From Craspedostauros australis (Eukaryota), in NCBI GenBank assembly GCA_030167865.1, contig JALAGF010001544.1, positions 1 through 37,784 of the forward strand: a stretch of 37,784 bases of DNA. The letters are read 5' to 3'. How positions within the stretch are numbered: position 1 is the stretch's first letter; each line of letters opens with the position of its first letter. Position numbers and translations under genes: made by a program. Shown here in pieces: positions 2,961-28,054 of this stretch. The notes beneath the pieces were generated by a model. It was not told the DNA's origin and did not search any database. It worked only from the letters and a program-made list of their open reading frames with translations.

Positions 2961-4175
2961 TTACTTCCCATCCTTGTCGTCCTTCTTGTTGTCGGTCTGG
3001 GCTTCATCTTCGTCGCGCATGTTGCGTGGGATGAATCGGCCAGTGTCATCGAACATGTCGGCCGACAGGGTTCTGTCTTCGACTGCCTTGGAGATGAGGG
3101 GGAGCTTGTTCGGCGTGGCCCCGGCCAGGGAGCTGACGGTGCAGTAGGCCACGGCCAGGAGGAGACTGCCGAAGATGAGGTCCGAACCGAGCTCAGTGAC
3201 GACGGATGGGACACTGACACCGGCACCGCCCATGACGAGCGCGAAGATGGCGGCAAGGAGACCAGGGAAGAAGAGAGCGATGTCCAAGAAGATGGCCTGC
3301 TGCATGTTGAATCGGATGAGGCGGTTCAATCCTGGGTTTCCGGAAAGGACGTTGAGGACGAGGAAAGTGATGAATCCGGAGAATGGGACGGATCTGTACA
3401 GCGTGTACAGCAAGGCCAAGGCGATGGCGGCGGGGTTGTCCTGGTTCTCCATGACGAGGAAACGTCCGAATTGGAGGCTGTCCATCAGGGGGAACAGGTA
3501 CGGCAACACCGACAGGACCTTGTCCTTCGTCGTGGGTGCCTTGTCGTTGATGAGATCCAGCTTGGCCTGTGCCAGGGCGGCATTTTCGGCTGCCAGCTGC
3601 GCCTGCTTAGCCGCCTCTCTTGCCTGCGCCTTCTCCTCCCGCGCGAGTGCCTCGATCTTGTTTCGGAACTTGTCCACGCCGACAAATTCATCCAGCTGCA
3701 GGGCGCCGTCGCCGGACACGTCGAAATCCTCCATGAGCTTTCTCACGCGCTGATCCGGGAGATCCGTTTTGAGGATCTTCTCCAGTCCCGCCTTGAGCTC
3801 ATCGAAGGAGACTTCGCCGTCCTTGTTGGTGTCGAATTTGCGGAAAGCATTCTCGGCGGCCTCGGCGAGTTCGTCCGCGCGGTCGGCTTCCAGGGCGGCT
3901 GCCTCCGCACGCAGCTTGGCGGCCATGGACTTGAGGCGTTCGATTTCATCGTCGTTCTTGACCTGCGCATCGGTGGATTGGGAGTACAGTTGCGTGGAGG
4001 CGGCGATTCTGGCAGTCGGCGACAACGAAAGCGTCGGTGTGCTGTGGACGTTCATGCGGTTGCGACTCAGAGAATTGGCTCCGCGGGGAGTTGGCGTCGA
4101 AAAGGCATCGGCCTGCTGGGTGCTGCAGAGAACGGCGGCGCCCATGATGGTGGATGTGGCAAGTGTGAGCTTCAT
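2961..4175 (-). CDS. Plastid-targeted Tic20/Ycf60-family membrane protein with an EF-hand pair
   Basis: 404-aa intronless ORF. Signal peptide ends ...QQADA-F followed by a Ser/Thr/Arg-rich transit peptide. EF loops are DTNKDGEVSFDE and DVSGDGALQLDE. The C-terminal region has Tic20-like motifs (DKVLSVLPYLFPLMDSLQFGRF; LNRLIRFNMQQAIFLDIALFFP; GATPNKLPLISKAV). Confidence 0.85.
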   Translation of the reverse strand: MKLTLATSTIMGAAVLCSTQQADAFSTPTPRGANSLSRNRMNVHSTPTLSLSPTARIAASTQLYSQSTDAQVKNDDEIERLKSMAAKLRAEAAALEADRADELAEAAENAFRKFDTNKDGEVSFDELKAGLEKILKTDLPDQRVRKLMEDFDVSGDGALQLDEFVGVDKFRNKIEALAREEKAQAREAAKQAQLAAENAALAQAKLDLINDKAPTTKDKVLSVLPYLFPLMDSLQFGRFLVMENQDNPAAIALALLYTLYRSVPFSGFITFLVLNVLSGNPGLNRLIRFNMQQAIFLDIALFFPGLLAAIFALVMGGAGVSVPSVVTELGSDLIFGSLLLAVAYCTVSSLAGATPNKLPLISKAVEDRTLSADMFDDTGRFIPRNMRDEDEAQTDNKKDDKDGK

Positions 4176-5587: not shown

Positions 5588-7656
5588 TTACCATCTCAGC
5601 ACATCGCTTCCGCTCTCATCGCCGCCGTTGTTGCCATTGTTGTCGTCCCAGCGGTTCTGGTTGTTCTGTTTTCCGGAAGGACGGGCGGTGGCCTCGGACA
5701 CGCGGATGATGCGGTCATCGAGCTCCATGCCGTCGAGGTTGTCGAGAGCAGATTGGGCGTCTTCTTTGCTCATGGTGACGAACGCAAATCCCTTGCGGTT
5801 GCCGGTGTCGCGGTCCGTTGGTACGTAGCAGTCCAGAACTTCGCCGAACTCGCTGAACACGTCCTCAAGAGTCTCTGGGTTGGTGTCCCAAGAAAGGTTG
5901 CCGCAGAACATCTTCACGCTTTTGACTGTTGTGATGCGTGGGCAGGTTATGGAATGCATATGGCGTAGTGATGGTGGGCGATGGTGATGGTTGCCATTGG
6001 GGATGGATGGATTAGGCGTCGTGGAGTTTCGGGTTTACGATCACGTGCCAAATGGAAACAATAGGAAGGCGCGACAGGGGAGATTGTTAGAGCACATTTC
6101 CAGTGAGGTTGTCAAAGCATAAAATGAGGCGGATGCTCCCCCATGTCGGTCGCGACGAGAGTAGTGGAGGCAGCAGTATATACACCAGACGTAGCAGGAT
6201 GCCAATGGGGTGTTGCAGATCCGCGCAACATCGATTCGAGCAGACCCAAACTGCACTCACCTCTTTGACCGCGGTTCTTCTGCGGTGGACGCGGGTGGCT
6301 CACCGTCACCCGTCGGCCCAAAGATTCATCTCCCTGCATTCGTTCGGTTGCGTCATTGATGTCGGTTGTGAATTTCATTGTCATGGATTGTATTGGAGTA
6401 GTGTTGTATCATGTTGAGTAGCATCGTATGAGAACGTGATATCAGACGGTGAAGGATGAGCGGACCAGGCGCGTGAGAGAGTTGTTCACGAGAGGAACCG
6501 AGAAGATGAGAATACGGAACGAGGGAAGTTGATCGTACAAACCATAAACAGCATGGGCATCCGATGCGAAGTTGCATGGAGCGCAATTGAATAGAGCAGT
6601 GCACAAGATGAACACAATATTTGCATGGTAGGTGTGCGCACTCATGACCACGGAACGCACGGGATATTTCCGAAGGGTTTCATCATGAAGTTCAACGCAT
6701 ACCAGAACGGCAGCACGACAGGCGCTGGTGTTGCTCTCTCATTGGCCACGCATGTTGCATGTTGTTTGACTCACGTTCAAGGTGTCGATGGCGGTTTCGA
6801 TGGCATCGGACTCAATCGTGACGAATCCGAATCCCTTCAAAACACCATCATCTCTCTTTGGAAGGTAGATATCGCGGACCTCTCCGAACTGAACGAAGAG
6901 CTCCTTGATGTCAGCCTCCGTGACGTCGAATGGAAGGCTTCCGATGTAGACCTTGCCGAAGCCTTCGTCGACATGCTTGATTTTTGGTTTGGCGGTTTGG
7001 CGATCGTCAGAGTTCTCGACGCGGATTTGACGTCCTGCGATGTCGCGGCCATTGGTGCCCGTGATGGCAAGATCCATTTCCTCCTTGGAGGACATGTCGA
7101 CGAACGCGAAACCGCGTCCGCGTCCGGTCTGTCTGTGGCGTGGGAGGCTGACGAATTTGACGCCGCCAAACTCGGCGTACACCTCCTTGATCTCTTCGAC
7201 GGTGACGTCGAATGGCAGGTTGCCGATGAAGATGGTGAAGCGCTCTTCGTCCTTGTTGAAGAAACCGGTCGTCATTGGCTTGGCAGGCACGGCTTCTGCG
7301 CCTTCCTCCGATGCGGATTCAACGGCGGTCTCCTCCGAAGCGGATGCAACGGTGGTCTCCTCCGAAGTGGATTCAACGGTGGTCTCCTCTGAAGCGGATT
7401 CAACGGCGGTCTCCTCCGAAGCGGATTCAACGGTGGTCTCCTCCGAAGCGGATTCAACGGCGGTCTCCTCTGCTGGCGTGTCAACGACGTTGACGGCGTC
7501 GCCAACCTCGTCGCCTGCAACGGCATGGAGGGCGGTGAAGACGGATTGCTTCTGGCGCTGGACGACAGAGGTGAGCGGTTTGGATGGAAGAACCCAGGCT
7601 TCGCACACGGTGGCGCTGAGCGAGAGCAGCAGAACGACTTGCTTGGTGATGATCAT
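5588..7656 (-). CDS. Plastid-targeted RNA-binding protein with 3 RRMs; exons 7656-6775, 6333-6261, 5925-5588
   Basis: Signal peptide ends VCEA-W. RNP2/RNP1 pairs: IFIGNL/RGFAFVDM, VYIGSL/KGFGFVTI, MFCGNL/KGFAFVTM. GTGAGT donors at 6774 and 6260 and CAG acceptors at 6334 and 5926 give consistent phases (0, then 1) and join as DTLN|GDESLGRRVTVS and QR-V|KSVKMFCGNL. Confidence 0.9.
7304..7470 (-). repeat. Coding tandem repeat, 6 x 27 bp (EET[AT]V[EA]S[AT]S), in the acidic linker of the RRM protein
   Basis: Unit tcctccgaagcggattcaacggYggtc starts at 7304, 7331, 7358, 7385, 7412 and 7439. Confidence 0.9.
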
Positions 7657-8047: not shown

Positions 8048-8119
8048 GGTCGTCTCCGGGAATCGAACCCGGGACCTCCACCACCCTAAAGTGGAATCAT
8101 GCCCCTAGACCAAGACGAC
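8048..8119 (-). tRNA. tRNA-Pro (anticodon AGG)
   Basis: Reverse complement folds as GTCGTCT/AGACGAC acceptor stem, D-arm GTCTAGGGGCATGAT, anticodon arm CCACT-TTAGGGT-GGTGG and T-arm CCGGG-TTCGATT-CCCGG; 72 nt, no intron. Confidence 0.95.
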
Positions 8120-8453: not shown

Positions 8454-9596
8454 TTATTCCTCCATGGTTTGGTCTGCCGTTTCTTCCACAGGGAGCTTCT
8501 TACGGATGCGCTCCGCGAAGCCTGCGAACGCCTTGCTCGCCTTGCTGGTTGGATGGGACGCCACCACCGACTGGCCATTTTCACAGCAGGTCAAGATGGC
8601 TTTGTCCAGCGGCAGCATCCCCCAGTACTCCAAACCGTACCTCTCCGCCATGGCCTGAGGACCGCCAGTGTTCGGACTGAAGATGTTGGACGTGATGAAG
8701 GTGTCCAGAACATCTGGGCACTTCTCTCGCAGCGTGGCCAGCACCTCCTCCGTGCGGTCCTCACCTGCGGCGCTCTCGAAGTTCATGGACGAAAGCTGCG
8801 CTTCGTACCTGCCCATGTTCTCGATGACGCCGAGGATGGGGACCTTCGTCTTCTGGCAGAAGCTGATCTCCTTGCGGACGTCGGCCAGCGATACCTCCTC
8901 GGGCGTTGTGACGATGACGGCCCCCGCCACGGATCCGGCCTTTTGCAGGTACTGCACAGTCGAAATGTGCTCGTCGCTGGTTCCAGGAGGCGTATCGACG
9001 ATGAGGTAGTCCAGGCCGTCGGTGTCCCCGGTCCAATCCACCTCCGTCAGAAATTGCTGGATCAGACCGTTCTTTCTGGGACCACGCCACACCACCGCAG
9101 CGTCATGATCCTGCAGCATGAAGCTGATGCTCATCACGGCCAGGTTTGGGTTGGCGTAGACGGGCGTCCATGCCCCCGAGCTGGAACGCGTGATCTGTGC
9201 TGAGAGGAAGGACGATCCCATGGCCATCCGCGGCGCAGACGGTCCGCAAAGGTCGACGTCCAGCAACCCGACGGCGTAACCCTGACCTGCCAGGGTGTGG
9301 CAAAGCTGTGCCGCCACCGTCGACTTGCCGACGCCGCCCTTGCCACTGAGAACGAGGATGACGTGGGACACGTTGTCGAGGCTGGACTTCAACGCCTCAA
9401 CCTGTTGCTTGGCTGCATCCTGAGCATCTGGGGAGTTGAACTTCCCGCTCGCACAGGCCGACTGGTTGGGACATCCATCGCACGCGGAAGACTTGCCGGC
9501 ATCCTGGCTGGTCGGTCCAACGCACTCCGCGTTGGCATCATCCGGCACATCGGATGGCGTCGTCTTGTTGCTGCTGCCGTTGCTCTCCGTTGTCAT
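8454..9596 (-). CDS. NBP35: Cytosolic Fe-S cluster assembly factor NBP35/NUBP1 (P-loop NTPase)
   Basis: N-terminal CX13CX2CX5C (CVGPTSQDAGKSSACDGCPNQSAC), deviant Walker A SGKGGVGKST, VWRGPRK, DYLIVDTPPGTSDEH, TTPEEVSLADVRKEISFC and GVIENM. The first in-frame ATG is at 9596. Confidence 0.95.
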   Translation of the reverse strand: MTTESNGSSNKTTPSDVPDDANAECVGPTSQDAGKSSACDGCPNQSACASGKFNSPDAQDAAKQQVEALKSSLDNVSHVILVLSGKGGVGKSTVAAQLCHTLAGQGYAVGLLDVDLCGPSAPRMAMGSSFLSAQITRSSSGAWTPVYANPNLAVMSISFMLQDHDAAVVWRGPRKNGLIQQFLTEVDWTGDTDGLDYLIVDTPPGTSDEHISTVQYLQKAGSVAGAVIVTTPEEVSLADVRKEISFCQKTKVPILGVIENMGRYEAQLSSMNFESAAGEDRTEEVLATLREKCPDVLDTFITSNIFSPNTGGPQAMAERYGLEYWGMLPLDKAILTCCENGQSVVASHPTSKASKAFAGFAERIRKKLPVEETADQTMEE

Positions 9597-11491
9597 GGTT
9601 GCGATTGTTGTTGCGGGCACTCGACTTTATCTGTTTGGTATTATCGTTCTCTATGTTTGACGCAGGTTTGCGATCTACGAGCCACGAGTACGCTGCTCCG
9701 TCTGTATTGGTGTGTACGAGGATGTACGAGGATGAATGTTTGCACAACGATTATACGACCTGTGTCGGAATAAGTATCGCTCTGTAGGCTGGAACACGAA
9801 GCAGCTCAGCACTTGATGGACGTGAGTGTGTGCTGCTGTCCTCTTTGCTTTCAGTGTCGTTGTTGCCTCTGTTTCTGTTGTGTGGCAGTGTTCGCTTCCA
9901 CAAGAATCGAACCTCATCTCACATCACTTCGCATTGTCGTGGTGGGTGGCATTGCGTTCGATTGTGTTCGATTGTGGTGGTGTTCGTGTCACCAACAACA
10001 CGAACACGAAAATGGCGGGAAAAATGAGTCTATCTAGTCAAGGATCCCGCAGACAACGATTCCGTTTCGCCAAGCCCTGCAATTCCATCACCAACAACGA
10101 CACAGCAATCTGCCCCAACGGAATGATGATCATTCTCGTAGAGCACATTACCAGATGCTGCGCACCGTCGAAGCGTCGTCCATGGTTGCGATGGCTGAAC
10201 TGGTCGGCATGGTTGCAACACCGGTGACGGCGCTGACAACATCATGCCTCTCCCCGAAGTCGAGGCAACTCATGGACAACGACAACGTCATGTGACATTG
10301 ACGCCGGTTGAGACAGCTCGATCTATTCGCCAGTGCCGTGTTTGCGCTCTCGCATTCAACACTTTCTCTCTCCGAAGAGATCAAATGGGGAGATGGGGCG
10401 AAGAGGGGAGCGAGGAGAGCAGAGCAGAGGACCAGCAACTATGCTGATTGAGTTTCAAATGGAAATGATGGTTTTGGAACGACTCGTGGACAGTGATGAC
10501 GATGAGAGAGATGGTGGCCTCGAGCGAAGTCTCAATTCCAAGCCAAAGCCGCCTTGCAGATGGAATCTGGTCTCCGAGGGTTGCACGATCAGGACATCGC
10601 TCGAGGTGCCATTCTTCCTGTCGGTACCCCGTAACCGTACAGGCTCTTCTGGACGACTGGGTGGTATGTCGCCAAATGCTGCATACACTCACCATCTCTC
10701 GACTTGTCTCATTTTGGAACGACACGTCGTCTGTGATTGCAGGGTACCACCCACGACCAACATTTCGCCGTTCACCGTTCGTGGCTATGGGGATACACAA
10801 CAACACTAACCTTGTCATTGGCATTGTGGCATTGTGGCAGTGTGACAGTGTGACAGTGTGGCAGTGGGAGAACAAACATGGGGAAGACAACGCTTCTGTG
10901 TATGTGTTGTTCACAAAGAGATCGCCAATGCTCTCGACCGGTGAACCGCTCGCTTCATCAACCAGCCTATTCTCGGGATCGGCACCGGCTGTTCCTGGTT
11001 GTGTTGGACGAAAGGGGGTGATAAATGTGTTTTCATCAAACTGGTGACGTTGTTGCGAATGCAAATGACAAGGGAACAACAACAACAACAGCAACAACGA
11101 ATGCAACAACAATGCATTACATTGCTTTGCGTTGGAGTGTACTGTGCATGTTGCCGACATGTCATCCTTCTCCCCCTGTCCGGTCTTGCGCATGAGTGAG
11201 CGCGTGAGCGTGTCACTTCATCCGATGTCCACTCATCCCATCATCTGCTCACAAAATCAAAAGCGAAACAAGAACAAGCACAACAGCAGCAGCAGCAACA
11301 ACAACACCCATAGAACCAGAACATCAGCGAACGCGACAAAGCAATACAAAGATCAACAGTTAGAAGCCAGAATCCTATCAAATCAAGAGGATTCCAACAA
11401 AGCACAACCCACAACTCAGCACAGCCCAAACTAATAGAGTTCCGACATGACCATGAGCACCGAAAGCATCGAGAAGCGACTCAGAAGCAAC

Positions 11492-12433
11492 ATGAAACTC
11501 TCTCGCTTCCTTGGATTGATCGTCCTCGCAGCACCATGCGCCAACAATCAAGTACACGCATTCACCACGAGACAACCAACCGCATCGACACCAACTAGTG
11601 GTAGCAGCAGCCGACTTCTTGCAACCTCGTTCGAGACAGAGAAAGCACCAACATCCCGTTTTTCCTTCCTTCAGAACGTGAGGCAAGCCGTGCAAGGCAC
11701 CACCGTCGCCGAGCAACCATCCACTGTCTCATCCAACGTGCCACAACAAGCATTCCACGATTCAGTCGCACCTGCAGATCCTCTCTGGAGCACCACCACT
11801 AAGCAGCTCGGTGAGTACCAGCGCACCACTATCAACACCAACGCCCGCGACACTGCATCCCTGCCATCAACATCAACGACCCGACGTGCATGGATGCAGT
11901 CTATGGCCGCCCTGGCTGTTGTCGCCACCTGCAGAACAGAGCACAAGCAGCTCAATCTCCCAGAAGAGCAGCTAGCGCAGATCATGATCAACGACATCGT
12001 CAACAAAAAGTCACTCGTCACCGCCGACATCACCAGATCCATCTACGACGAGCAAGCCACCTTCAAGGACGGATCCGACCTCGACGGCAAGTACTACCTT
12101 GAGCAATGGGTACGCGGCTGCCGCATGCTGTTTGATGCATCCAAATGCGACTCGCGACTTGTTGAAGACACGCTGTCGGTGACGAAGCACGCCGTCACAT
12201 TTCGCTTCGAGGAGGACCTGACATTCCGCGGTCCATTCTCACCAAAGTGCTTCCTGAGCGGAACCGTCGTCATGAAGCGCTGCCCCATGTCCGGACTGAT
12301 CAAGTCGTACGAGGAGATCTGGGACAAGGATGTGTCAAGTATTGTGAAGTCTGCGAAGCTTCAGGGCGGCAACCGCATGACCGACCTCTTCATGGCTCGG
12401 CTCCAGTCTTCGGATGATAACTGCACGGCGTAA
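11492..12433 (+). CDS. Plastid-targeted DUF2358/SnoaL(NTF2)-like protein
   Basis: Probable start MKLSRFLGLIVLAAP...VHA-F (an upstream ATG at 11447 is also in frame). The C-terminal domain ADITRSIYDEQATFKD...FRFEEDLTFR...LSGTVVMKR...GLIKSYEEIWD resembles DUF2358/NTF2-like folds. Confidence 0.65.
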   Translation: MKLSRFLGLIVLAAPCANNQVHAFTTRQPTASTPTSGSSSRLLATSFETEKAPTSRFSFLQNVRQAVQGTTVAEQPSTVSSNVPQQAFHDSVAPADPLWSTTTKQLGEYQRTTINTNARDTASLPSTSTTRRAWMQSMAALAVVATCRTEHKQLNLPEEQLAQIMINDIVNKKSLVTADITRSIYDEQATFKDGSDLDGKYYLEQWVRGCRMLFDASKCDSRLVEDTLSVTKHAVTFRFEEDLTFRGPFSPKCFLSGTVVMKRCPMSGLIKSYEEIWDKDVSSIVKSAKLQGGNRMTDLFMARLQSSDDNCTA

Positions 12434-12986: not shown

Positions 12987-14723
12987 ATGGATCTCATTCA
13001 GCTCGTCAAGTCGGTGTACTCCACCGGACTCTTCATCTTCTCGATCACCATCGTCTGCGGACTCATCTTCAATGAGCAGACCAAGGTCTCGTCCGAGGTC
13101 CACCCAGTGGTCGCCTTGGTCGTCATGATCACGGCCCTCGTATGGCTCAACATGGTGGAGAGAGGACAGGGGTCCCTCGTCGGTCTCCCACCAGTCGACC
13201 GCGACCTCTACGTCGAATCCCACCCAACCAGCCACCACTGCACCTCCCTCGCCCACAAGGGTGACAACCTCGATCGCTACCTCATGGTCTTCACCATCAA
13301 CCAGTGCGATGCCCCCCCCCCCCCCCTCGCCGATGCCCGAGTCTTCGGCTTCCCAGACATCATCATCCAGATTTTCCTCGGATCCGGAGCCGCCATGATC
13401 CTCATGACCGCTCAAGCCGGACAGCTCAACTCCCAAGTGAACGCCTCCCTGTGCATGCTTGACTACATCAACAACTTCTTCGCCGTCTTCACCCTCTATG
13501 TTGCCCTCGCCATTGAGTTCTCTGGACTTCTGCACTCGTGCTACCTCGTCCAGATGTTCTTCGTCTGGGCCTCTGGCAAGGAAATCGAGTCGAAGGAACC
13601 ACCACGTGACGGTGCCCAGAACCTCTTCTACTGGGGCCGCATCCTCATCTCCCTCGCCATCCTGTGCTATGCCATGGCTGTCACCCTGGTCGCCCTCTTC
13701 GATGGAAAGACCACCATGTGGGCCGGAGTGACAAACGGAGTCGCTGTCATCCTCTTCTTCCTCTTCATGTCCATCGTTGGTATGCTCGAGGGTATGCAGA
13801 TCGCCTTCTTCGCCGTCGCCAAGCTTCCAAAGGAGGAGCGTGGAGACCATCCAATGGCCCGCAAGACCTGCGAGCTCCTCTTCCGCGGTGACGGACGCAA
13901 CCTTCCAGGATTCATGATCGGACGTCAGATCTTCGTGACGATGTGCTTCTTCATCATCGCTTGTGTCACCACTCTTGATGTCGAGGTCGGAACTGGCGAG
14001 AACATCTTCGGAGTCTCCGATAGCACCCAGGAATTCTTCAACACTGGACTTCTCGGAGCCCTCATCACCACCATCATCGCCTCCATCGCATGGCAGCTGG
14101 TTGTATCCATCTTCCCAATCGCCTTCCTTTCCAGCCCAATCGTCCACATCTTCCTCGAGTTCTCTCTGTTGTTGGAAGCCACCGGTATCTTCTCCGGAGC
14201 CTGTGTCCTCGCTTCCGTCCACAAGGCCGTCTCTGGCTTCCAGCTTGATGAGGTGTACATTGGCACCCCAGAGGAGCGCGTCGTCGGCATGAAGCCAGAC
14301 CACAAGAGCAACCGTAACCTGCACCTCGGAACCAACGTCCTTGTCAACGAGGCAAGTTCCACTGCCGTTCCAAAGGAATACCTCGAGCTCCAGAAAGCTC
14401 TCGCCGCACAGAACGAGTCTTACCCCGTCCGCCGCGAGCGCATTCTGTCGAACATCAAGAGCCTCCGCGAAGAGATCAACGCCTGCAGCAACGAGGAGGA
14501 TGCCGTCGTTTTCGAGTCTGCTCTTCGCATGGAGACTGCTGCCATGAACGAGCTGAACCAGGACGAGGAGAATGAAGGTTCTGAGGCTGACGCCGATGAG
14601 GAGATGGGCATGCAGAAGTATGCACTATGTGCATTAAGGGGCAACCAGAGTGCGCCGTACCAATACACCAAAGCATCAACACATGCGTCACGTTGCCAAA
14701 GGTATCTTGGAGATGCATCGTGA
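12987..14723 (+). CDS. SIT: Silicon transporter (SIT family), degenerate in its N-terminal half; may be a young pseudogene
   Basis: SIT hallmarks: QGSLVGLPPVDRDLY.ESHP, KGDNLDRYLM, GQLNSQVNASLCMLDYINN, LEGMQIAFFAV, NLPGFMIGRQ, FFNTGLLGALITTI and a C-terminal coiled coil. Open reading frame of 578 aa. The first EGXQ reads ERGQ and the first GRQ is absent. Confidence 0.93.
   Translation: MDLIQLVKSVYSTGLFIFSITIVCGLIFNEQTKVSSEVHPVVALVVMITALVWLNMVERGQGSLVGLPPVDRDLYVESHPTSHHCTSLAHKGDNLDRYLMVFTINQCDAPPPPLADARVFGFPDIIIQIFLGSGAAMILMTAQAGQLNSQVNASLCMLDYINNFFAVFTLYVALAIEFSGLLHSCYLVQMFFVWASGKEIESKEPPRDGAQNLFYWGRILISLAILCYAMAVTLVALFDGKTTMWAGVTNGVAVILFFLFMSIVGMLEGMQIAFFAVAKLPKEERGDHPMARKTCELLFRGDGRNLPGFMIGRQIFVTMCFFIIACVTTLDVEVGTGENIFGVSDSTQEFFNTGLLGALITTIIASIAWQLVVSIFPIAFLSSPIVHIFLEFSLLLEATGIFSGACVLASVHKAVSGFQLDEVYIGTPEERVVGMKPDHKSNRNLHLGTNVLVNEASSTAVPKEYLELQKALAAQNESYPVRRERILSNIKSLREEINACSNEEDAVVFESALRMETAAMNELNQDEENEGSEADADEEMGMQKYALCALRGNQSAPYQYTKASTHASRCQRYLGDAS
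13312..13326 (+). repeat. C15 homopolymer inside the SIT coding sequence (in-frame, encodes APPPPL)
   Basis: gat gcc ccc ccc ccc ccc ctc read directly. Confidence 0.9.
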
Positions 14724-15471
14724 ATCTCAGACCATGGCGTCGCTCTCCTCCAAATGACGCAAAACGCAATCGCATACTATACCTGTCGCAACACATGAGC
14801 TGAACAGAGGTATCATAGCCTTGCAACACGAAGCGGTATTGAACAGAGTGCAGCAAACTATGCCATAGTAAAAAATTGTAGTCCACTGAACATTCATTGA
14901 ATCACCTGATTTACATCAGTGATGGATGTGAAACACTTGGCAGCTGCTCATGGAGACAATAGTACATTGGCGGGTGGTTGGTTGTCGTTCGTTCTCGCTC
15001 TTCTTCACTCGCAGGTACTTCGTTCGCATCCAACACTTGCGCAACGAAGGTTGGGCACGATGAGAATTTGCAGCTCGCGCTGGTCGTCCTCTCCACAAGT
15101 GTGCATACCTGTACCGAAGCAGGACACGATGGAGAGATAGAGACTAACACAGAAACCAAGCGGCAGAAAGAGAGAGAGAGAGAGAACCACAACGAAAGAC
15201 AACGAGAGAAAGCGATACGACCAGGTGGCAACGAGCCACAACACGCCATCCAAACCCACGCTCAAACATGCCAACAACGGGCATTGATTGGATGTCTATC
15301 GCGTGGTACGTACTCGCGGAATTGAGACATCCAATCGATATCTCCACCGGGGTAGGAGACATCAAACCATAAAACATCCTCAACAACTCATCACCCGGCG
15401 ATCACTATCCAATAATCGTCCAACAATCATCCATCGAACAGAACCCAACAATCGTCAACCGTCATCACGAC

Positions 15472-15610
15472 ATGCCGACTATTTCGAACAAACAACTCCT
15501 TGATGCCTCCAAAACAGGCGATTTGGAGCGTGTCGAGCAATTCGTCGAATCAACCAAGGCTGATACCGATATACAAAGCCACAAAGACAAAGCACCCCTC
15601 GATGTGATCG
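15472..15610 (+). pseudogene. Degenerate ankyrin-repeat gene fragment
   Basis: QLLDASKTGDLERVEQFVESTKADTDIQSHKDKAPLDV follows the ankyrin consensus (LL.A...GDLE.V..L....AD.......TPL), then the frame loses protein-like character and stops at 15759. Confidence 0.5.
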
Positions 15611-16630
15611 GTACAGACGATCAGATCAACGTGCAAATTTCAATCATCACTAGTCTCAATCACCACATCTCACGACTGCAGCTACAGCCGCAGATGAAGA
15701 TGTCATGGAATCATCCTTTTGACACCTGGTGCCAAGCGAAATGCTGTAACCACAGCTAATGAAAAGCGAACGCGTCATGAAATAGCTCAGGGGCGAGCAG
15801 ATTCACACGCAAGGTTGACACCACCAGCATCATCACCAGCACTCGTGCCGCTCCATCATCACCATCCGACTAAGCACACAAGTTCATGTGAGTCATGATG
15901 GAGTCCGATACGAGCATGATGACACAGAAAGCAATCGCCATCCCCGACCTCCATTCAAACGTCTTGCTCCTCCCTTCCCTCCTTGTCTTTGTATTTTAAA
16001 CGCAGTGATGGGTGGCGGGAATTTGTGAGGTGATGAAGGCAGTCAGCGCATTCGTGGAATGCCAGGACGGCGCTGATGATGCCGAGGTTGCGCAAACGCA
16101 TGGCAGCCACACGGTTGGTTAACGTCCAATCCACCCTCATGCGCGACCGTCGAAATTAATTGTTTAACACCATTCCCCACCTGGCTCGCAAGTCCCGCCG
16201 CCTCACATTTTGATTTTGTTCTTCTCACATCATTTACGACTTTTCAAAACAAAGCCACAAGTGCTAACATCGTGCTTCCTCGTGCTCGTGGCACACTCAA
16301 TTTGATTCCGTCTTGGCTGTTCCCAAGAGGATGCAACTTCCTACTACTCACTCGTACTCGTACCTACCCACGGTTGCGGGTGTTGCTGCAGCCACCTGCA
16401 CCAACATCACCTGTGGATGCTGTGTGCCTGAGTTTGAAGGAGTTCAGGCGAGCAACATGAAATGAGCCGCGACAGCATCGTGTGTATGCGTGGCCAAACA
16501 TCTCGACCCAACTGCTCCGACATATTATAATTGCACGACAAATATCAACAACAGGACCAACAGCACCAACGACAGACTCAACAACACCGAATCAAGACGC
16601 ATCGATAGCAACGTATTCAATAGCACGACC

Positions 16631-18394
16631 ATGAAGTTCGCGGCCTTTTTTGGCATCTGTTCGCTGATTGTTGCCGCCTTGTCGACAACTCTCTGCACAT
16701 CAGCCGTGGCTGTGGAGCAGCAAGATGCTTTCATCATTCGCATTCCGAGTGGAACCGACCATTCTTCTCTGGATCTTCAGGTGCGACGCATGCTCCGTAA
16801 CACCAGCAGGCAGCTGGCAACCAGCAATGGGCTACTCGAGCTGTGCTACCGATGCTTGTGCTCCCTTCAAGATGGCAAAGAAGTCTGCGAGTGCGAAAAC
16901 AACGGCACGGATCCCAGATGCTCCGAGACTTCAACCTTCAAGGCAACCAAGAGCGAAACCTTGAGCGCTCTGGCCGCTGATACGGGCTCGGCACCCTCAT
17001 CATCAGTGACAACAACAGGAATCACAACAACGACGACGACGACGATTGTCAATGACGCAGCCCCAACGAAAAGTTCAAAGGCCAAGTCGGCAAAAGCTGG
17101 CAGCACTGGAGGACTCAGCAAAACAAACAAGGCCACCACCCAGCAGAGCAACGAAGGACCAGCTGGATCGAGCGGCAGCGATGGCAACAGTAGCCTCTGC
17201 GAATCATCCAGCTCTTGCATTACATGCACCCTTTCCAGCAACAATGTTTGCATTTGCGAGCCCAATGGCACCTGCAACGGATCATCACCCACCAAGACAA
17301 GCAAGAACGCCAAGGGATCAAGCACACCCTCTACTACGGCCGTCGTGAAGGGAAGCAAGGCAGCGAAAATGGCAGGACCCGGTATGTCACAATCGGGCAG
17401 CGAAGGTGACTCGAGCAACACGAGCGCGGCAGATGGCAGCGACAGTGATGCAAGCCAGTCTGCCGAGAGCAGCAAGTCTTCGAAATCGAGCAAGGCAGAC
17501 GACGGTGCGACTGCTCAAAACAAGTCCCCCAAGGCCATCAAGTCCAGTAAGGAATCCAAGAAGGGTTCCAAGAGTGCCAAGCAGGATCTATGCTACATCG
17601 ATGAGTGTTTCGATTGCGCCTACGACGGTGATGACTGTCGGTGCAACTGGAATGGTGACTGCGCATCCAGCCCATCCTCACCGTCGGGACCCAGCTCAAG
17701 TTCGAATAACTCTCCAAGTCAGAGCTCCGACACCTCTCCAAGCCAGAGCAAGAGTAGCGGATCATCTCCGTCAAAGAGCAAGTCCTCAGGCCCTTCCAGC
17801 AGCCAAACGGCGACTCAATCCAAGAGCAAGAGCAAGAGTGACGAAAGTTCTCCATCAAAGAGCAAATCCGCCGGCGCCGCCAAAAGTGGAACAGCTTCTC
17901 AATCCAAGAGCGTGAGCAAGTCCGCGGATAGTGGGGACGGCCAACCAGCCTCTCAGTCCAAGAGCAAGAGCAAGAGCAAATCCGCAGGCGCTGCCAAGAG
18001 CCAAGGAGCTTCATCTTCCAAGGCCAAATCGGCCGGTGCCACCAAGAGCCCAACGGCTACCCAATCCAAGAGCAAGAGCAAGAGCAAGAACAAGTCCGCG
18101 GGCACCGCCAACAACCAAACGACGCCTCCAACAAACAGCAGATCCGAAGGCGCCCCTGATACTCCGACGGCATCTCAGTCCAAGAGCAAAAGCGCAGGTC
18201 CCGCGAAGTCGAGCACCAACAACGCAAGCAAAAGCACCGGCAAATCCAAGACCAAGGGCGCAAGTCCAGCTACAGGCGACGCCATGGGCACCACCGACAA
18301 CAACAGCGGCGCAGAAGCGAGTCCATCCAAGCGAGGACCACGAGGAAAAGTCTCTGAAGCTCGCAGCTACCCGCTGATCCCAGATGATCGATAA
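16631..18394 (+). CDS. Secreted Ser/Lys-rich silaffin-like protein with RXL sites, KxxK clusters and three 6-Cys modules
   Basis: ATG at 16631 begins the signal peptide MKFAAFFGICSLIVAALSTTLCTSAVA. RRML and RQL motifs follow. Lys clusters include KSSKAKSAK, KGSKAAK, KSSKSSK and KSPKAIKSSKESKKGSKSAK. The C-terminal half is (SK)n repeats and there is no TM segment. Confidence 0.8.
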   Translation: MKFAAFFGICSLIVAALSTTLCTSAVAVEQQDAFIIRIPSGTDHSSLDLQVRRMLRNTSRQLATSNGLLELCYRCLCSLQDGKEVCECENNGTDPRCSETSTFKATKSETLSALAADTGSAPSSSVTTTGITTTTTTTIVNDAAPTKSSKAKSAKAGSTGGLSKTNKATTQQSNEGPAGSSGSDGNSSLCESSSSCITCTLSSNNVCICEPNGTCNGSSPTKTSKNAKGSSTPSTTAVVKGSKAAKMAGPGMSQSGSEGDSSNTSAADGSDSDASQSAESSKSSKSSKADDGATAQNKSPKAIKSSKESKKGSKSAKQDLCYIDECFDCAYDGDDCRCNWNGDCASSPSSPSGPSSSSNNSPSQSSDTSPSQSKSSGSSPSKSKSSGPSSSQTATQSKSKSKSDESSPSKSKSAGAAKSGTASQSKSVSKSADSGDGQPASQSKSKSKSKSAGAAKSQGASSSKAKSAGATKSPTATQSKSKSKSKNKSAGTANNQTTPPTNSRSEGAPDTPTASQSKSKSAGPAKSSTNNASKSTGKSKTKGASPATGDAMGTTDNNSGAEASPSKRGPRGKVSEARSYPLIPDDR

Positions 18395-19215
18395 ACGCGC
18401 AAGCCTCAACCACGGTACACCCGCGAACATGACGTTCCAGTGGCAATGCATGTCCTCCTGGATGAATGATCGTGCGGCACGACACGTGATTGGACAGAAC
18501 GAACAACGCGAGACTAAAAGCAAGCAGGGTTGTGAGATCTTCTTCGAAGATCTTGTGACACAATCCAAGCACTGACTCCCAAGCAACCAGATCTTTGCAG
18601 GCTTGTGACAAATGTATTATACAATTAAAACTAAAACCCGATTCATACACAGCATGACTCTAGAAAGAACTGTACCGCGACCCCCACGCTCCAAGCGGGT
18701 TCTTCTTGATGCTGGTGTGTGTCTTCTTGTGCAGCAACAATTGCACGTGGTGGAAAAAACAGATGAGGCGACCAACATATTCGAGTAACCGGTCTCGCCG
18801 CCGTGGCTCATGGAGACAAGCACATCGACTGCCTGTTATGGTTTGTTCTTTCTGGTGGTCCACACTATTAGTTTGGGTGAATGCGAGCAAATATCGTGGA
18901 TTATGGTTTTGCATTCACGCTAACTGCTCTACTCTACTCGACGCTTCCTCACAACGACCCACCCATCAACATGCCATTTCATCGATGTCATTGGAGTGTA
19001 TCGAATCCCGAGCAAATCTCCATTCGCGAATCGATTGAACGAATGGACAAAGGATTGATGGCCGACATCAACAAAAAGAAATTGGTTCGTTTTCCCAAAC
19101 TCTCTCCGCCCCAACCGCGAGGTGCCACAATTCGTATCCTCGCACGGAGCAGCCGATTGCCGTCCTCACCCTGCACAATTGCATTTGTCCCCAAAGGACG
19201 ATCAGTGGCTCTAGC

Positions 19216-20971
19216 ATGAAGGTCGGGCTTCAACGTTGTCTCAGACCGCTCCAACCACTGTCGCGAGGCAAGGCGGCGGCTTGGTTTGGTGGATCTCGCT
19301 GCGCGAACTGGATCACTCCAGTCACCATGGACGGCAACACGAGGCTGGCATCGTCCAAGCCAACACCATCGTCGCTGTCGAGCCCGCGCGCGCAGCACGC
19401 CGTTTCCCTCTTGCCGTCCTACCTGACGGATGCAAGAGCAGTCGAGATTTACTCTGAGTCCACACCTGATGGCGTGCTGCAACTCAGCGTCGCCGAGAAT
19501 CAGATGTTGGAAGACCTGCTGCTGCCGGCCATTCACAAGTTCAGCATCACCGCCCATACAGCAGACGGCCTCTGCTTTCCTGCGGACGGCATCTACTACC
19601 AAACCACGCACGGACGCGAGTCCTGCCGGAAGGTCGTGGCGGACTATTTCACGCAAACCCTCAAGCTGTCCAAGCCGATGGATGCCGATGGTGTTGTCAT
19701 TGGTGCTGGATGCAATGCCGTTCTGGAGAACCTGTGCATCACCTTGACATCTCCGGGAGATGGCGTCCTGGTGCCAACGCCGTACTATGCCGCATTCGAA
19801 TTTGATCTTGGTTGTCGAGCGGGTGAGTAGGTCTGACGTGGGTGCGTTCGCAATGTGCTCGTGTCGTTGAACCGACATCTAGGCGCAGAATTGTTTGGAG
19901 CAATACTCGTACACTTTGGCTGATACAATCACCCCCTCGCACCGATTCACTCATTCATTCATTCACTCATTCATTCCGCTCACTCTCTGCCTCTCTGATG
20001 ATCCACGCCCACAATCAAAATCGCAAACAACATCCAAACCTGTAGGACTGACCATCATCCCGGTCCAAACCATGGATTATCATGATGACAGCACCACCAT
20101 CGACCGCTCTGGTCCAATCCCACAGCACATGTACTACCCAAACAAGAAGTCGCTGGGCGCGGCATACGCCAAGGCCGTCGAAGCGGGCAACCCGCCACGC
20201 ATCTTGCTCATCAGCCATCCCATGAATCCTCTCGGAATCAGTTACCCGGAGTCCGTCATCCAGGAGTGCACCGACTGGTGCCGCGAAAAGAAGGTGCATC
20301 TCGTCAGCGATGAGATCTACGCCGGAAGCGTGCATGCAGGCGAAGATGCTGGCTTCGTGTCGGCCTTGGAGGTTGCCGCGACGCAAGACGACGATGGCTC
20401 CGCAGGTCTGGGTGTGGGTCCGTACGTTCACTTCGTGTGGTCCATGTCGAAGGACTACGCGTCCAGCGGATTGCGCGTGGGTGCGCTATATTCTGAGAAT
20501 GAAGAGATCCGTCTGCCCTTGCAGAAGTTGAATGATCTGTGCAGTGTGTCGTCACAAACTCAATTGTTGGTGGAAAGCATGCTGTCAACGGAGACGGAGG
20601 CAGCGGCCGGAAACGGAGCATGGTTCGAGGCATTCCTCGAAGAAAATCAATCGCGCTGCGCTACGCGCGGCGGTGAGTGGCAAAGCTGCCTGGAGGAGCT
20701 GGACATCCCGCATCTCAAGCCAACATCAGGATTGTTCATTTGGATGGATCTGCGCGAGTTCCTGCCCGAGGATGGCACGGATGCCGAGCGCGAGCGCAAG
20801 CTGTACTTGGATCTCATGCAGCACGGTCTGCTGTTCACGCCAGGGGCGAGCATGAAGAACGAGCTGCCGGGATTCTTTCGCTGTGTCTTCACTGCAGCAT
20901 CCCAACACACCAGCGATCTGGGCATCGAGCGATTGAAGGAATTCGTTGCCAAGAAGCGTAGCAGCGCATAA
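19216..20971 (+). CDS. ACC-synthase-like PLP-dependent class I/II aminotransferase; exons 19216(or 19327)-19822 and 20046-20971
   Basis: ACS-like boxes: QLSVAENQM, VPTPYYAAFEFDL, SHPMNPLG, HLVSDEIYAGS, WSMSKDYASSGLRVG (PLP Lys) and PGFFRCVF. The phase-1 intron GTGAGT(19823)...TAG(20045) joins CRA-G-LTIIPV. The start codon is uncertain. Confidence 0.88.
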
Positions 20972-25512: not shown

Positions 25513-25869
25513 GCCCGTCAAGACTCGGGCCATCTTCCTCGTATGTAATAGCTCTTCTATCATTCACTAGTCCAATCATTCGCGCTCGTGAGGTGTAGCA
25601 TGCAATGCCGCTCAAAATCTTGGGCCACATCTCCCATACTTGTTCTCGCATTTCACCATTCCATTGAGTATGCCATTGAGGATGCAATACTATGACGCAG
25701 CACAGCACAATAGCAACGCTCTCTGGCGTCGTCCTCGAATCACTCTTTTCCGCCCGGTTCCGCTCTCCATCCAATTCGCATGCTGCGATGCAAGTGTTTC
25801 ACCATGTGCACACACCGTCCAATGAAAGAATTGGATTCGCCAGCCAACCATCCAACCAGCTGACTCTGT

Positions 25870-27111
25870 CTAGTACTGCGCATACCCTTGTGGCTGCTGC
25901 GCATATCCATACTGCGGTGCCGGTGGCTGGCCGTACATACCGGCTGGCGGTGGCTGCGGCGGCTGTCTGGGTGGCTGAGCAAAGGAAGGTGCCGATCCGT
26001 AACTCACCATGCTCTGGTTGCTGGGGCTGGTGAGATTGGGCGGTGCGCTTCCGTAGGCTGGTGCGCCTCCATAGGCTGGTGCGCCGTACGCCGATTGCGG
26101 GGCGAGAGGAGGCATGCCGGCCGGGGGCGGAGCTGGAGCTTGGCTGTAGTACGGCGTGATGGCGCCGGGAGCTGGAGCACCGAATGGCTGAGTCGTCTGC
26201 TGCGGTGGAAGCGGCGGTTGTCCCCAGGGCTGCGGCGGAGCGGCGGCCGGTGGTTGCGGCGGCATCTGCTGAGGAGGCAGCGCGTAGTTGTTGTACACTG
26301 CTCCCGCCGGCGGAGGTGGCTGCTGCTGGTGATGTTGCTGCAGCGATGGATCCAGCGTGAGGCTCGACACCAACGTCGGCTGTCCCCTTTGGGGAATAGG
26401 AGGCGGCACGGGATCGTCGAAGGAGATGAGACTGGCCTCGTCCTTGGCTCCGACCGAACTGGAATGGGAATACGACTTGGTGATCTGCTGATCCCCGCTG
26501 AGCTGCTGCGTCTGATAGTCCTGCAGACTTGCCCGCTTGGCCGCCTCGATGGCCTCCCTCTCCTCCGCGGTGAGATCGTCACCACCACCGCGGCTCCTGT
26601 GGGAGTGGGCATGCGATCGTCCGTGACCTCTGCGCCCGGAGCGGCCACGGTGCACGGGACGCACCATCATGGCGGGCGTTCCGAGCTGGAAGATCTTGGA
26701 GAAGGCAAAGTAGCTGACGCCGCTGAGCCTGAGGTCGAACGGGCGCGAGCCTGGAACGTCCTTGGATGCCGGGGCGGTGATGAGGTGGCACTTGAGCGGG
26801 CTGCTGATGCCGGGCACCTTGAGGGGGAACTTGTGCTGAAAGACCTGGTCGGCCGTCCAGCCGTTCTGGCCGGACTCGCTGTAGTGCACGTCCTTGCCAT
26901 CGGCCAGGATCTGGCGCTTGCCGGAGTTGAGGGACCAGATGAAGATGACCTCGTGCTCGCTGCCGCGGCAATCGGGACCGCTCTTTCCGCTGGCGATGAA
27001 GTCGTTGTTGGCGACGCCGAACTTGAACGAGACCCTCTTCTTGGAGAAGCCGAACGTCTTGGACACGTTCTGGTCCGAGTAGTCCACCTGGTAGGGGACG
27101 AAGGTGGCCAT
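25870..27111 (-). CDS. Protein with FAIM1-like beta domain, UIM-like helix, clathrin-box-like motif and Pro/Gln/Tyr-rich tail
   Basis: 413-aa ORF with strong C/G3 codon bias. Motifs: HEVIFIWSLNSGKRQILADGKDV, EEREAIEAAKRASLQDY, LISFDD, and a PPQ/AYG-rich C-terminus. Confidence 0.75.
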   Translation of the reverse strand: MATFVPYQVDYSDQNVSKTFGFSKKRVSFKFGVANNDFIASGKSGPDCRGSEHEVIFIWSLNSGKRQILADGKDVHYSESGQNGWTADQVFQHKFPLKVPGISSPLKCHLITAPASKDVPGSRPFDLRLSGVSYFAFSKIFQLGTPAMMVRPVHRGRSGRRGHGRSHAHSHRSRGGGDDLTAEEREAIEAAKRASLQDYQTQQLSGDQQITKSYSHSSSVGAKDEASLISFDDPVPPPIPQRGQPTLVSSLTLDPSLQQHHQQQPPPPAGAVYNNYALPPQQMPPQPPAAAPPQPWGQPPLPPQQTTQPFGAPAPGAITPYYSQAPAPPPAGMPPLAPQSAYGAPAYGGAPAYGSAPPNLTSPSNQSMVSYGSAPSFAQPPRQPPQPPPAGMYGQPPAPQYGYAQQPQGYAQY

Positions 27112-28054
27112 GTTGCTGTTGCTACTGCTGCTATGACTGCGATTACTGCTATTATTACTGTCGCTGTCGACCCTTCTGTGGTTGTTTGGTCAGATGCAGG
27201 CGCAGATGGAGACAACGCGGATTATGCGAAGCGTGTGATTGGTGTTGATGCTGGTGCTGGTGCTGATGCTGACTGTTGCTCTGCAATCGCTGCAAGCCGC
27301 GCCTTCATGTACTCGTACGATCTATGCTATACACGACACCGCGATCAGTCGTGCCCGTTCTCTGTTGTGATAGTGATGCACGAGATGGCTTGTTCACTTG
27401 TCTTCACTCCACTTCACTTCGTGGACAGGGTATGGCCTCTCTCTCTCTTGGGAATCCTCTTGTCTGTTGCTGCTTCGCATGTGTGTTTGTGCAACCGGCG
27501 GCGATGAAGGCGGAGGGGACACAGAGAGAGGAAGAATTGGGTGGAGAGGCCTTCTTCCCTCGGAACGAAGCAAACCGAACAACTGCCGTGGACCTCACGA
27601 ACACCGAAGACGATGCGGTCGGAGGTGGTTTGGATCCTCGGTGACTCGTCCGTCGAGATCCTTCTTGTGAAGCTTTTTCACTCACGGCACGCGGTGGGAT
27701 CGTGCATTTCAAATTGTCCATGACGGACAAACAATTGCCATCGTTGATTTATTTAGCACTAACAACTTGGCCGTTCACAAAACACATTTTGGAGAAATCC
27801 GGCGAAAGGGACATCGGATCCGATCAGTCGATGGTGCAGAACTGCTTTTGGCACGATTGGAGTGTCTCTTCCATTCGTGGAGTTAGCAAGCGCATTGAGA
27901 CAAGAGCGTCTGCATCAGTATGGAAGGGTATTGTCAGGGATGTGCATTCGTAGTAAGCGATGGCATTACCATACGTGCACAAAGTCGCCATTCATATGAG
28001 TGCTACATATGCTCGGCAAGAGGATCAGAGCATGCTCGAGTACTCTGTTATCGT

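Follow-up and report, generated by a model that had tools for sequence, protein, structure and literature searches.

A candidate silaffin-like secreted protein with lysine clusters and six-cysteine modules, encoded near a silicon transporter gene in the raphid pennate diatom Craspedostauros australis

Does a serine- and lysine-rich reading frame of a raphid pennate diatom encode a protein of the silica cell wall, or one that is secreted for another use such as adhesion? The question is raised by a 37,784-nucleotide stretch of Craspedostauros australis DNA (positions 1 to 37,784 of contig JALAGF010001544.1, GenBank assembly GCA_030167865.1; hereafter the window), in which an earlier model-generated reading of the letters alone (the sequence-only reading) had singled out positions 16631-17590 as coding for a strong candidate for an undescribed biosilica-associated protein. 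Our analysis places there an intronless open reading frame (ORF) of 587 codons plus stop (16631-18394), which, like all the features of its product described below, lies on the forward strand; we refer to this product as P0001. On balance, we consider P0001 to be probably a lineage-specific cell-wall protein of silaffin-like type, which its lysine clusters would target to the silica of this raphid pennate. It should be borne in mind that silaffin is the name of a biochemical class (tightly silica-bound and set free only on dissolution of the silica, with phosphoserine and with polyamine- or methyl-modified lysine, and able to precipitate silica in vitro) and not of a homology family, and that P0001 appears to present only the substrate motifs of this class, i.e. 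serines and KxxK units.

The start proposed by the sequence-only reading stands, 16631 being the earliest in-frame ATG of a stop-to-stop frame that opens at 16466. Its end does not: the ORF continues for 804 bases past 17590, which is no gene boundary and merely the edge before a cysteine-rich module, so that the former extent covered 320 of the 587 codons and omitted this module, the third of its kind, together with the C-terminal half of the protein. Length is in itself a poor gene criterion at this locus, since long antisense frames also overlap P0001 (16867-17514, 215 amino acids, and 18011-18616, 201 amino acids, both on the reverse strand), as a consequence of the AAG/AGC-rich low-complexity coding DNA. 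It could therefore be argued that P0001 is not a gene at all and that its open frame is a by-product of such DNA, given that both strands carry long open frames and that our searches for P0001 yielded neither a relative nor a transcript. The properties of the frame itself argue otherwise. Its codon-usage fit, for which four confident genes of the same window served as reference, was the best of the six frames (-4.01 per codon versus -4.16 to -4.39 for the other five), and AAG makes up a fraction of 0.77 of its lysine codons versus 0.78 in the reference genes. The spacings between copies of its internal repeat families are divisible by 3 in 17 of 18 cases, the exception being a two-copy family of 18 nucleotides, and a signal-peptide-like segment directly follows the first ATG. 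Moreover, three modules of the translated protein hold six cysteines, a Leu, an Asn and a Gly in register, with 36-38% pairwise identity, and not even one match to the module pattern arose in any of 20,000 composition-preserving shuffles. Codon fit, in-frame repeats, signal-peptide-like start and registered modules thus favour a real gene, and a non-coding origin of the frame seems to us very improbable.

The silica reading draws on the composition of P0001 and on the spacing of its lysines. Serine (23.9%), alanine (10.9%), lysine (10.2%) and threonine (9.5%) dominate the protein, proline accounts for only 5%, and acidic Ser-rich blocks alternate with basic clusters along a chain whose mature, unmodified form would have about 52-56 kDa and a pI of 9.3. 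KxxK occurs 16 times, always within residues 104-317; in the segment 98-320 these 16 occurrences compare with a shuffle mean of 2.65, a count of 16 being reached in none of 5000 shuffles, and lysine spacings of 1, 2 and 4 showed no enrichment in the same test. Among the 59 mature lysines, 48 lie 2 or 3 residues away from another lysine, and serine is the commonest neighbour on either side. Published screens for biosilica proteins offer a measure of this pattern. The screen of Fattorini & Maier 2022 (PMC9650480) combined a signal peptide, the lack of a membrane domain and the presence of lysine-enriched regions or an alternative motif, two or more K(X)2K motifs at most four residues apart being required for a lysine-enriched region; two of the matching proteins were examined in detail, and the green fluorescent protein (GFP) fusions of both marked the frustule. 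All three features are found in P0001, with the signal peptide called by a heuristic and with five lysine-enriched regions: region 1 (residues 147-155, nucleotides 17069-17095), which contains two KxxK; regions 2 and 3 (residues 222-228 and 240-246, nucleotides 17294-17368); and regions 4 and 5 (residues 282-288 and 298-317, nucleotides 17474-17581), which follow an acidic Ser/Asp/Glu-rich block delimited by a net-charge scan (residues 257-281, nucleotides 17399-17473). Region 5 is made of six chained KxxK over 20 residues (nucleotides 17522-17581), and it is precisely here that the KxxK arrays had been said to peak.

Other published criteria converge on the same segment. The pentalysine cluster (Poulsen 2013, as cited in Skeffington 2021 and Brembu 2017) consists of five non-consecutive lysines within 12-14 residues, and its pattern K..K..K.{1,2}K..K is reported in 29% of soluble silica proteins versus 1.5% of background proteins (Skeffington, 10.1101/2021.09.18.460806); P0001 has one match, at residues 298-310, and six windows with five lysines within 14 residues. 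Eight KxxK variants were found in that study to be more than 20-fold enriched, with KSSKA reaching 77-fold; six of the eight are present in P0001, where KSSKA occurs twice. The KXXK screen (X = Ser or Gly) of Brembu 2017 (PMC5501833) would also retain the protein, since two of its six K[SG][SG]K motifs, at 304-307 and at 311-314, are separated by three residues. Within the window this profile is confined to a single ORF: P0001 gave the only match to the pentalysine pattern among 170 stop-to-stop ORFs of at least 100 amino acids, it alone has 100-residue windows with at least 18 serines and 10 lysines, and no second ORF of silaffin-like composition was found. A silaffin-like composition screen (Scheffel 2011) reportedly looked for a domain high in Ser and Lys. 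With provisional thresholds of at least 18% Ser and 10% Lys per 100 residues, 289 of the 488 windows of 100 residues in P0001 would qualify.

The lysine pattern changes in the C-terminal half (residues 345-587, nucleotides 17663-18391), a Ser/Lys/Pro/Ala-rich region built from degenerate in-frame repeats (families D1-D4 and arrays of the hexamer CAAGAG). KxK occurs there 15 times versus 4.3 expected, which none of 5000 shuffles equalled, and KxxK is absent versus 4.3 expected; at 444-456 and 480-488, five lysines again fall within 14 residues.

Entry of P0001 into the secretory pathway is suggested by its N-terminus, residues 1-27 (nucleotides 16631-16711), which resemble a signal peptide with a putative cleavage site after residue 27. 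Residues 3-21 are the sole strongly hydrophobic stretch of the protein (Kyte-Doolittle 19-residue mean of 2.07), the AlphaFold model predicts a helix at residues 4-20, and the small residues at positions 25 and 27 (-3/-1) are compatible with cleavage before residue 28. No membrane segment was detected in P0001, the 19-residue hydropathy maximum being 0.69 beyond the first 30 residues. The signal peptide announced by the sequence-only reading is borne out by a heuristic call from hydropathy and small residues. Three other ORFs of the window (2961-4175 and 6739-7656 on the reverse strand and 11447-12433 on the forward strand) likewise open with a signal-peptide-like segment and then have Phe or Trp after an Ala-containing, cleavage-like site, an arrangement characteristic of proteins imported into diatom plastids. 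The ORF at 6739-7656 codes for a protein with two RRM domains, which are preceded by acidic tandem repeats (Glu/Thr/Ala/Val/Ser) with a unit of about 8 residues. The residue at +1 of the predicted cleavage in P0001 is Val, which, with no later hydrophobic segment, fits a secretory route rather than a plastid or membrane destination.

The segment that follows, residues 28-62 (nucleotides 16712-16816), is a putative propeptide that would end in two RXL sites, RXL being a described processing motif of diatom silica proteins. These are the RRML (residues 52-55, nucleotides 16784-16795; RML itself at 53-55, nucleotides 16787-16795) and the RQL (residues 60-62, nucleotides 16808-16816) that had already been noticed after the signal peptide, and both lie at most 35 residues from the predicted cleavage. 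A third R.L starts at residue 74, within the first cysteine module, and none occurs after it. The motifs are therefore present as claimed and weak as evidence: three were seen versus about 0.4 expected, by a hand estimate from 13 R and 19 L in 587 residues, and since R and L crowd the N-terminal 100 residues the two sites there are not significant alone. Given that no RXL is found beyond residue 74, P0001 is expected to stay a single chain of about 525 residues.

Another distinctive feature of P0001, which the sequence-only reading passed over, is its cysteines, 18 of the 20 being placed in three related six-cysteine modules and the remaining two in the signal peptide. A regular-expression scan and alignment delimited module 1 at residues 72-97 (nucleotides 16844-16921), module 2 at residues 190-215 (17198-17275) and module 3 at residues 321-344 (17591-17662, just past the former boundary at 17590). 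They share the spacing C-x(2-5)-C-x(1-2)-C-x(6-8)-C-x-C-x(5-8)-C, with a Leu before the first cysteine and Asn-Gly before the last one invariant in all three, and no processing motifs stand beside them, RXL being restricted to residues 53, 60 and 74. The single-sequence AlphaFold model of P0001 has a mean predicted local distance difference test (pLDDT) score of 39.3, with 524 of 587 residues below 50, and about 90% of the protein is predicted to be disordered; apart from the signal helix, some confidence is attained only in modules 1 and 3, with scores of about 70 and 55, respectively. Module 1 is predicted as a beta-hairpin with strands 73-80/83-90 (pLDDT about 70 from the single sequence), and again as a beta-hairpin (pLDDT about 75) when the three modules were aligned, its two C-x-C pairs then facing each other in a disposition from which we infer a possible disulfide ladder. 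A Cys/Tyr-rich low-complexity stretch at 27111-27197 (forward strand, frame 3) also matches a loose version of the module pattern; it was discarded as a second module-bearing ORF, as its frame differs from that of the long ORF 25864-27507, and probably arises from the repetitive nature of the DNA. Apart from this stretch, the pattern was found in no other ORF of the window.

Searches for relatives of P0001 were negative throughout. A word-indexed protein search with the whole protein gave no hit at E<=0.001 among 7998 scored candidates, a full HMMER scan of 1.84 billion representatives gave none at the same threshold, and an exact look-up retrieved no identical entry from a protein collection in which the organism's own proteome seems to be absent. 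A profile of the three modules compared with longer proteins had no match at E<=10 among 251 candidates, the ESM Atlas returned no usable match for the whole protein or for residues 28-110, and no Pfam family was assigned to the whole of P0001; Pfam searches with module fragments at E<=10 retrieved chance-level matches only (E 3.8 and 0.16), and a profile search of the PDB with the modules had a best E of 3.5, which is not significant. Foldseek, run on a module model of pLDDT 63, returned 121 matches, none of them at E<=0.001; the weak ones include laminin-type EGF and follistatin hairpins, and the EGF-like neighbours, at E about 3, are not evidence of kinship. The failure to find relatives is itself a weak result, low-complexity sequence being down-weighted and the signal of a short ortholog falling below threshold in such large databases. 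It is compatible with membership of the silaffin class, because silaffins are stated to share no sequence similarity, and the predicted disorder of P0001 fits a silica-wall protein because silica proteins have been reported as disordered and of low complexity.

The same structural data might point to a secreted protein of a different kind, such as a carrier of three small hairpin peptides stapled by disulfides or a component of the extracellular matrix or of mating, with the Ser/Lys-rich parts acting as linkers without a role in silica. The modules are indeed the only parts with a predicted fold, and EGF-like and follistatin-type hairpins are among their weak structural matches. However, no Foldseek match reached E<=0.001 and no Pfam family rose above chance level for the modules, the modules are not flanked by the processing motifs from which peptides could be released, and the ordered spacing of lysines over about 450 residues argues that the presumed linkers are the functional part of the protein. 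We hold such an alternative to be distinctly unlikely.

A stronger competitor is the one that the sequence-only reading had itself named, i.e. that P0001 is a mucin-like surface or adhesive glycoprotein of mucilage or trails, and to this the three cysteine modules give real support. The proteins of C. australis trails are described in 10.1101/2023.03.06.531300 as secreted, with signal peptides and with Pro/Thr/Ser-rich regions that alternate with repeats of six conserved cysteines outside any known domain; P0001 has three such modules. Its Ser/Thr/Pro stretches would then be heavily O-glycosylated spacers, the modules disulfide knots that confer elasticity or cross-linking, and the lysine clusters would serve for electrostatic attachment, whether to substrata or to a silica surface of negative charge, and not for incorporation into silica. 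In keeping with this, P0001 has a Thr run at residues 127-139 and 12 N-x-S/T sequons, and Pro, Thr, Ser and Gly amount to 273 of its 587 residues (46.5%), a value within the range of 40-78% given for trail and surface proteins in the same study; moreover, its host is a raphid pennate, as also shown by a neighbouring transporter with 71% identity to a sequence of Stauroneis constricta. On the other hand, trail proteins have not been described as bearing lysine clusters, there being 0 occurrences of the word lysine in that study's main text, whereas P0001 has 10% Lys in ordered KxxK chains and only 5% Pro. Neither GDPH, CAA, vWA nor any other Pfam family was found in P0001, and in Amphora, likewise a raphid diatom, a secreted Lys-rich protein chosen as an adhesive candidate was traced to the insoluble matrix associated with biosilica (PMC4220933). 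We regard an adhesive function as the main rival, possible and yet rather unlikely; the two readings overlap, and the protein may sit on the silica surface.

The genomic surroundings add circumstantial evidence for a role in silica. A complete silicon transporter gene, which had gone unmentioned in the sequence-only reading, is found 1.9 kb upstream of P0001 on the same strand (12987-14723; matched to Pfam Silic_transp at E 3.4e-223 over positions 2-507 of a profile of 513). It has 1396 relatives at E<=1e-50, the best full-length one being the Stauroneis constricta transcript already referred to, followed by many raphid pennate sequences; its last 40 residues or so are unlike the family, and an intron may be involved at the true 3' end. 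Co-expression of P0001 and the transporter is plausible because silicon-responsive genes have been reported to cluster in Phaeodactylum, another pennate diatom (PMC2758714). The regions upstream of the two genes have no k-mer of 9-12 bases in common, fewer than the shuffles do, and co-regulation is therefore unsupported at this level. The gap between the genes contains a 95-codon ORF (15472-15759, forward strand) without a Pfam match at E<=10 and a short (GA)n-type run (15165-15190). Elsewhere in the window, a tRNA-Pro with anticodon AGG (8048-8119, reverse strand; Rfam and ARAGORN) adjoins the gene of a NUBP/ParA-type P-loop ATPase (8454-9596, reverse strand), and a class I/II aminotransferase is split across two adjacent frames (19039-19830 and 19883-20971, forward strand), probably two exons around a short intron; none of the other neighbours of P0001 looks silica-related.

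Considered as a silaffin-like wall protein, P0001 would enter the endoplasmic reticulum (ER) co-translationally and be cut at RML55 or RQL62, with the loss of about 28-35 residues as a propeptide. Its serines could be phosphorylated in the ER and Golgi, and its clustered lysines there methylated, hydroxylated or aminopropylated, KXXK having been proposed in a review as the recognition unit of lysine-modifying enzymes, and each cysteine module, probably a stapled beta-hairpin, might be closed by as many as three disulfides. The lysine-enriched regions, among them the one with the pentalysine cluster at 298-310, would steer the protein into the silica deposition vesicle and the silica that forms there, where a zwitterionic chain, with phosphoserine and acidic blocks set against modified lysines, may assemble and promote or shape silica deposition, and the cysteine modules may anchor this chain in the insoluble organic matrix. 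It is tempting to speculate further that the modules are an undescribed disulfide-stapled beta-hairpin that makes of a silaffin-like polyampholyte a cross-linkable building block of the insoluble matrix, a hybrid between silaffin and mucin-type adhesive, and that P0001 and the transporter form a functional tandem pair linking silicon uptake to its deposition; we consider this extension unlikely.

Several observations weigh against a silica-wall protein and temper our confidence in it. The plan of six-cysteine repeats in Ser/Thr-rich sequence is the one stated for trail and mucin-like proteins of a raphid diatom. The targeting rules stem from the centric Thalassiosira and its relatives, and the host of P0001 is a raphid pennate; the pentalysine pattern is borne by 1.5% of background proteins as well, and the KxK spacing of the C-terminal half is not the canonical unit. 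To these must be added the heuristic nature of the signal peptide call, the statistical weakness of RXL sites that are N-terminal only, and the upstream regions without common k-mers. The earlier proposal of a biosilica candidate is partly sustained: it agrees with the published screens, and the adjoining transporter gene adds circumstantial evidence, silaffins in the strict sense being defined by biochemistry.

One further lineage-specific Ser/Lys-rich secreted protein of diatoms is to be expected in itself: composition and motif screens returned many in Thalassiosira pseudonana, where 55 regulated silaffin-like and 10 new proteins are mentioned (PMC5501833). Nonetheless, few silica-wall proteins are known from raphid pennates and the targeting rules come almost wholly from centric Thalassiosira, and a protein such as P0001, in which a canonical pentalysine cluster and five lysine-enriched regions occur in a pennate together with a second, KxK-spaced array of lysines, would put the generality of these rules to the test. 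The cysteine modules might in turn help to explain the fixation of soluble silaffin-like chains in the insoluble matrix.

Among the known systems closest to P0001 are the T. pseudonana proteins tpSil3, Tp5357 and Tp12162. Like it, they have a signal peptide, an N-terminal RXL and no membrane segment, and they are long, disordered, Ser/Lys-rich single polypeptides in which K(X)2K units are chained over 7-20 residues; the T. pseudonana silaffin-like proteins and P0001 are also alike in having one match to the pentalysine pattern. Tp5357, for instance, is described as a protein of 593 amino acids with one lysine-enriched region of 24 residues and two RXL motifs (PMC9650480). No sequence relationship between P0001 and these proteins is detectable, and, unlike them, P0001 has three six-cysteine modules and KxK instead of KxxK in its C-terminal half, and comes from a raphid pennate and not from a centric diatom. 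The cingulins of the T. pseudonana girdle-band microrings, to which the sequence-only reading had likened the protein together with the silaffins, also have a signal peptide and Ser-rich KXXK regions and possibly include members of the insoluble matrix. In cingulins these regions alternate with Trp- and/or Tyr-rich ones; P0001, whose 587 residues include 1 Trp and 4 Tyr, has no aromatic-rich regions, and cysteine modules take their structural position, so that the cingulin half of that comparison fails.

Sil1p of Cylindrotheca fusiformis, the precursor of silaffin-1A/1B, is likewise a basic Lys/Ser-rich protein of a pennate in which RXL follows the signal peptide. It is, however, a polyprotein from which peptides are cut, its short repeats all terminating in RRIL or RRNL, and P0001, whose three R.L motifs are all N-terminal, was rejected as a polyprotein of this type. 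Finally, CaFAP1, CaTrailin3, CaTrailin4 and Ca5609 of C. australis are, like P0001, secreted proteins of a raphid pennate that combine low-complexity Ser/Thr-rich sequence with six-cysteine repeats. In comparison with P0001, of about 56 kDa, the trail and surface proteins of this species are much larger (95-894 kDa), and they are described as Pro/Thr/Ser-rich, with no mention of lysine clusters, a comparison made from their published description. Taken as a whole, these likenesses suggest that P0001 is a new, apparently lineage-specific addition to the known and heterogeneous class of silaffin-like secreted proteins, made unusual by its six-cysteine modules and its KxK tail.

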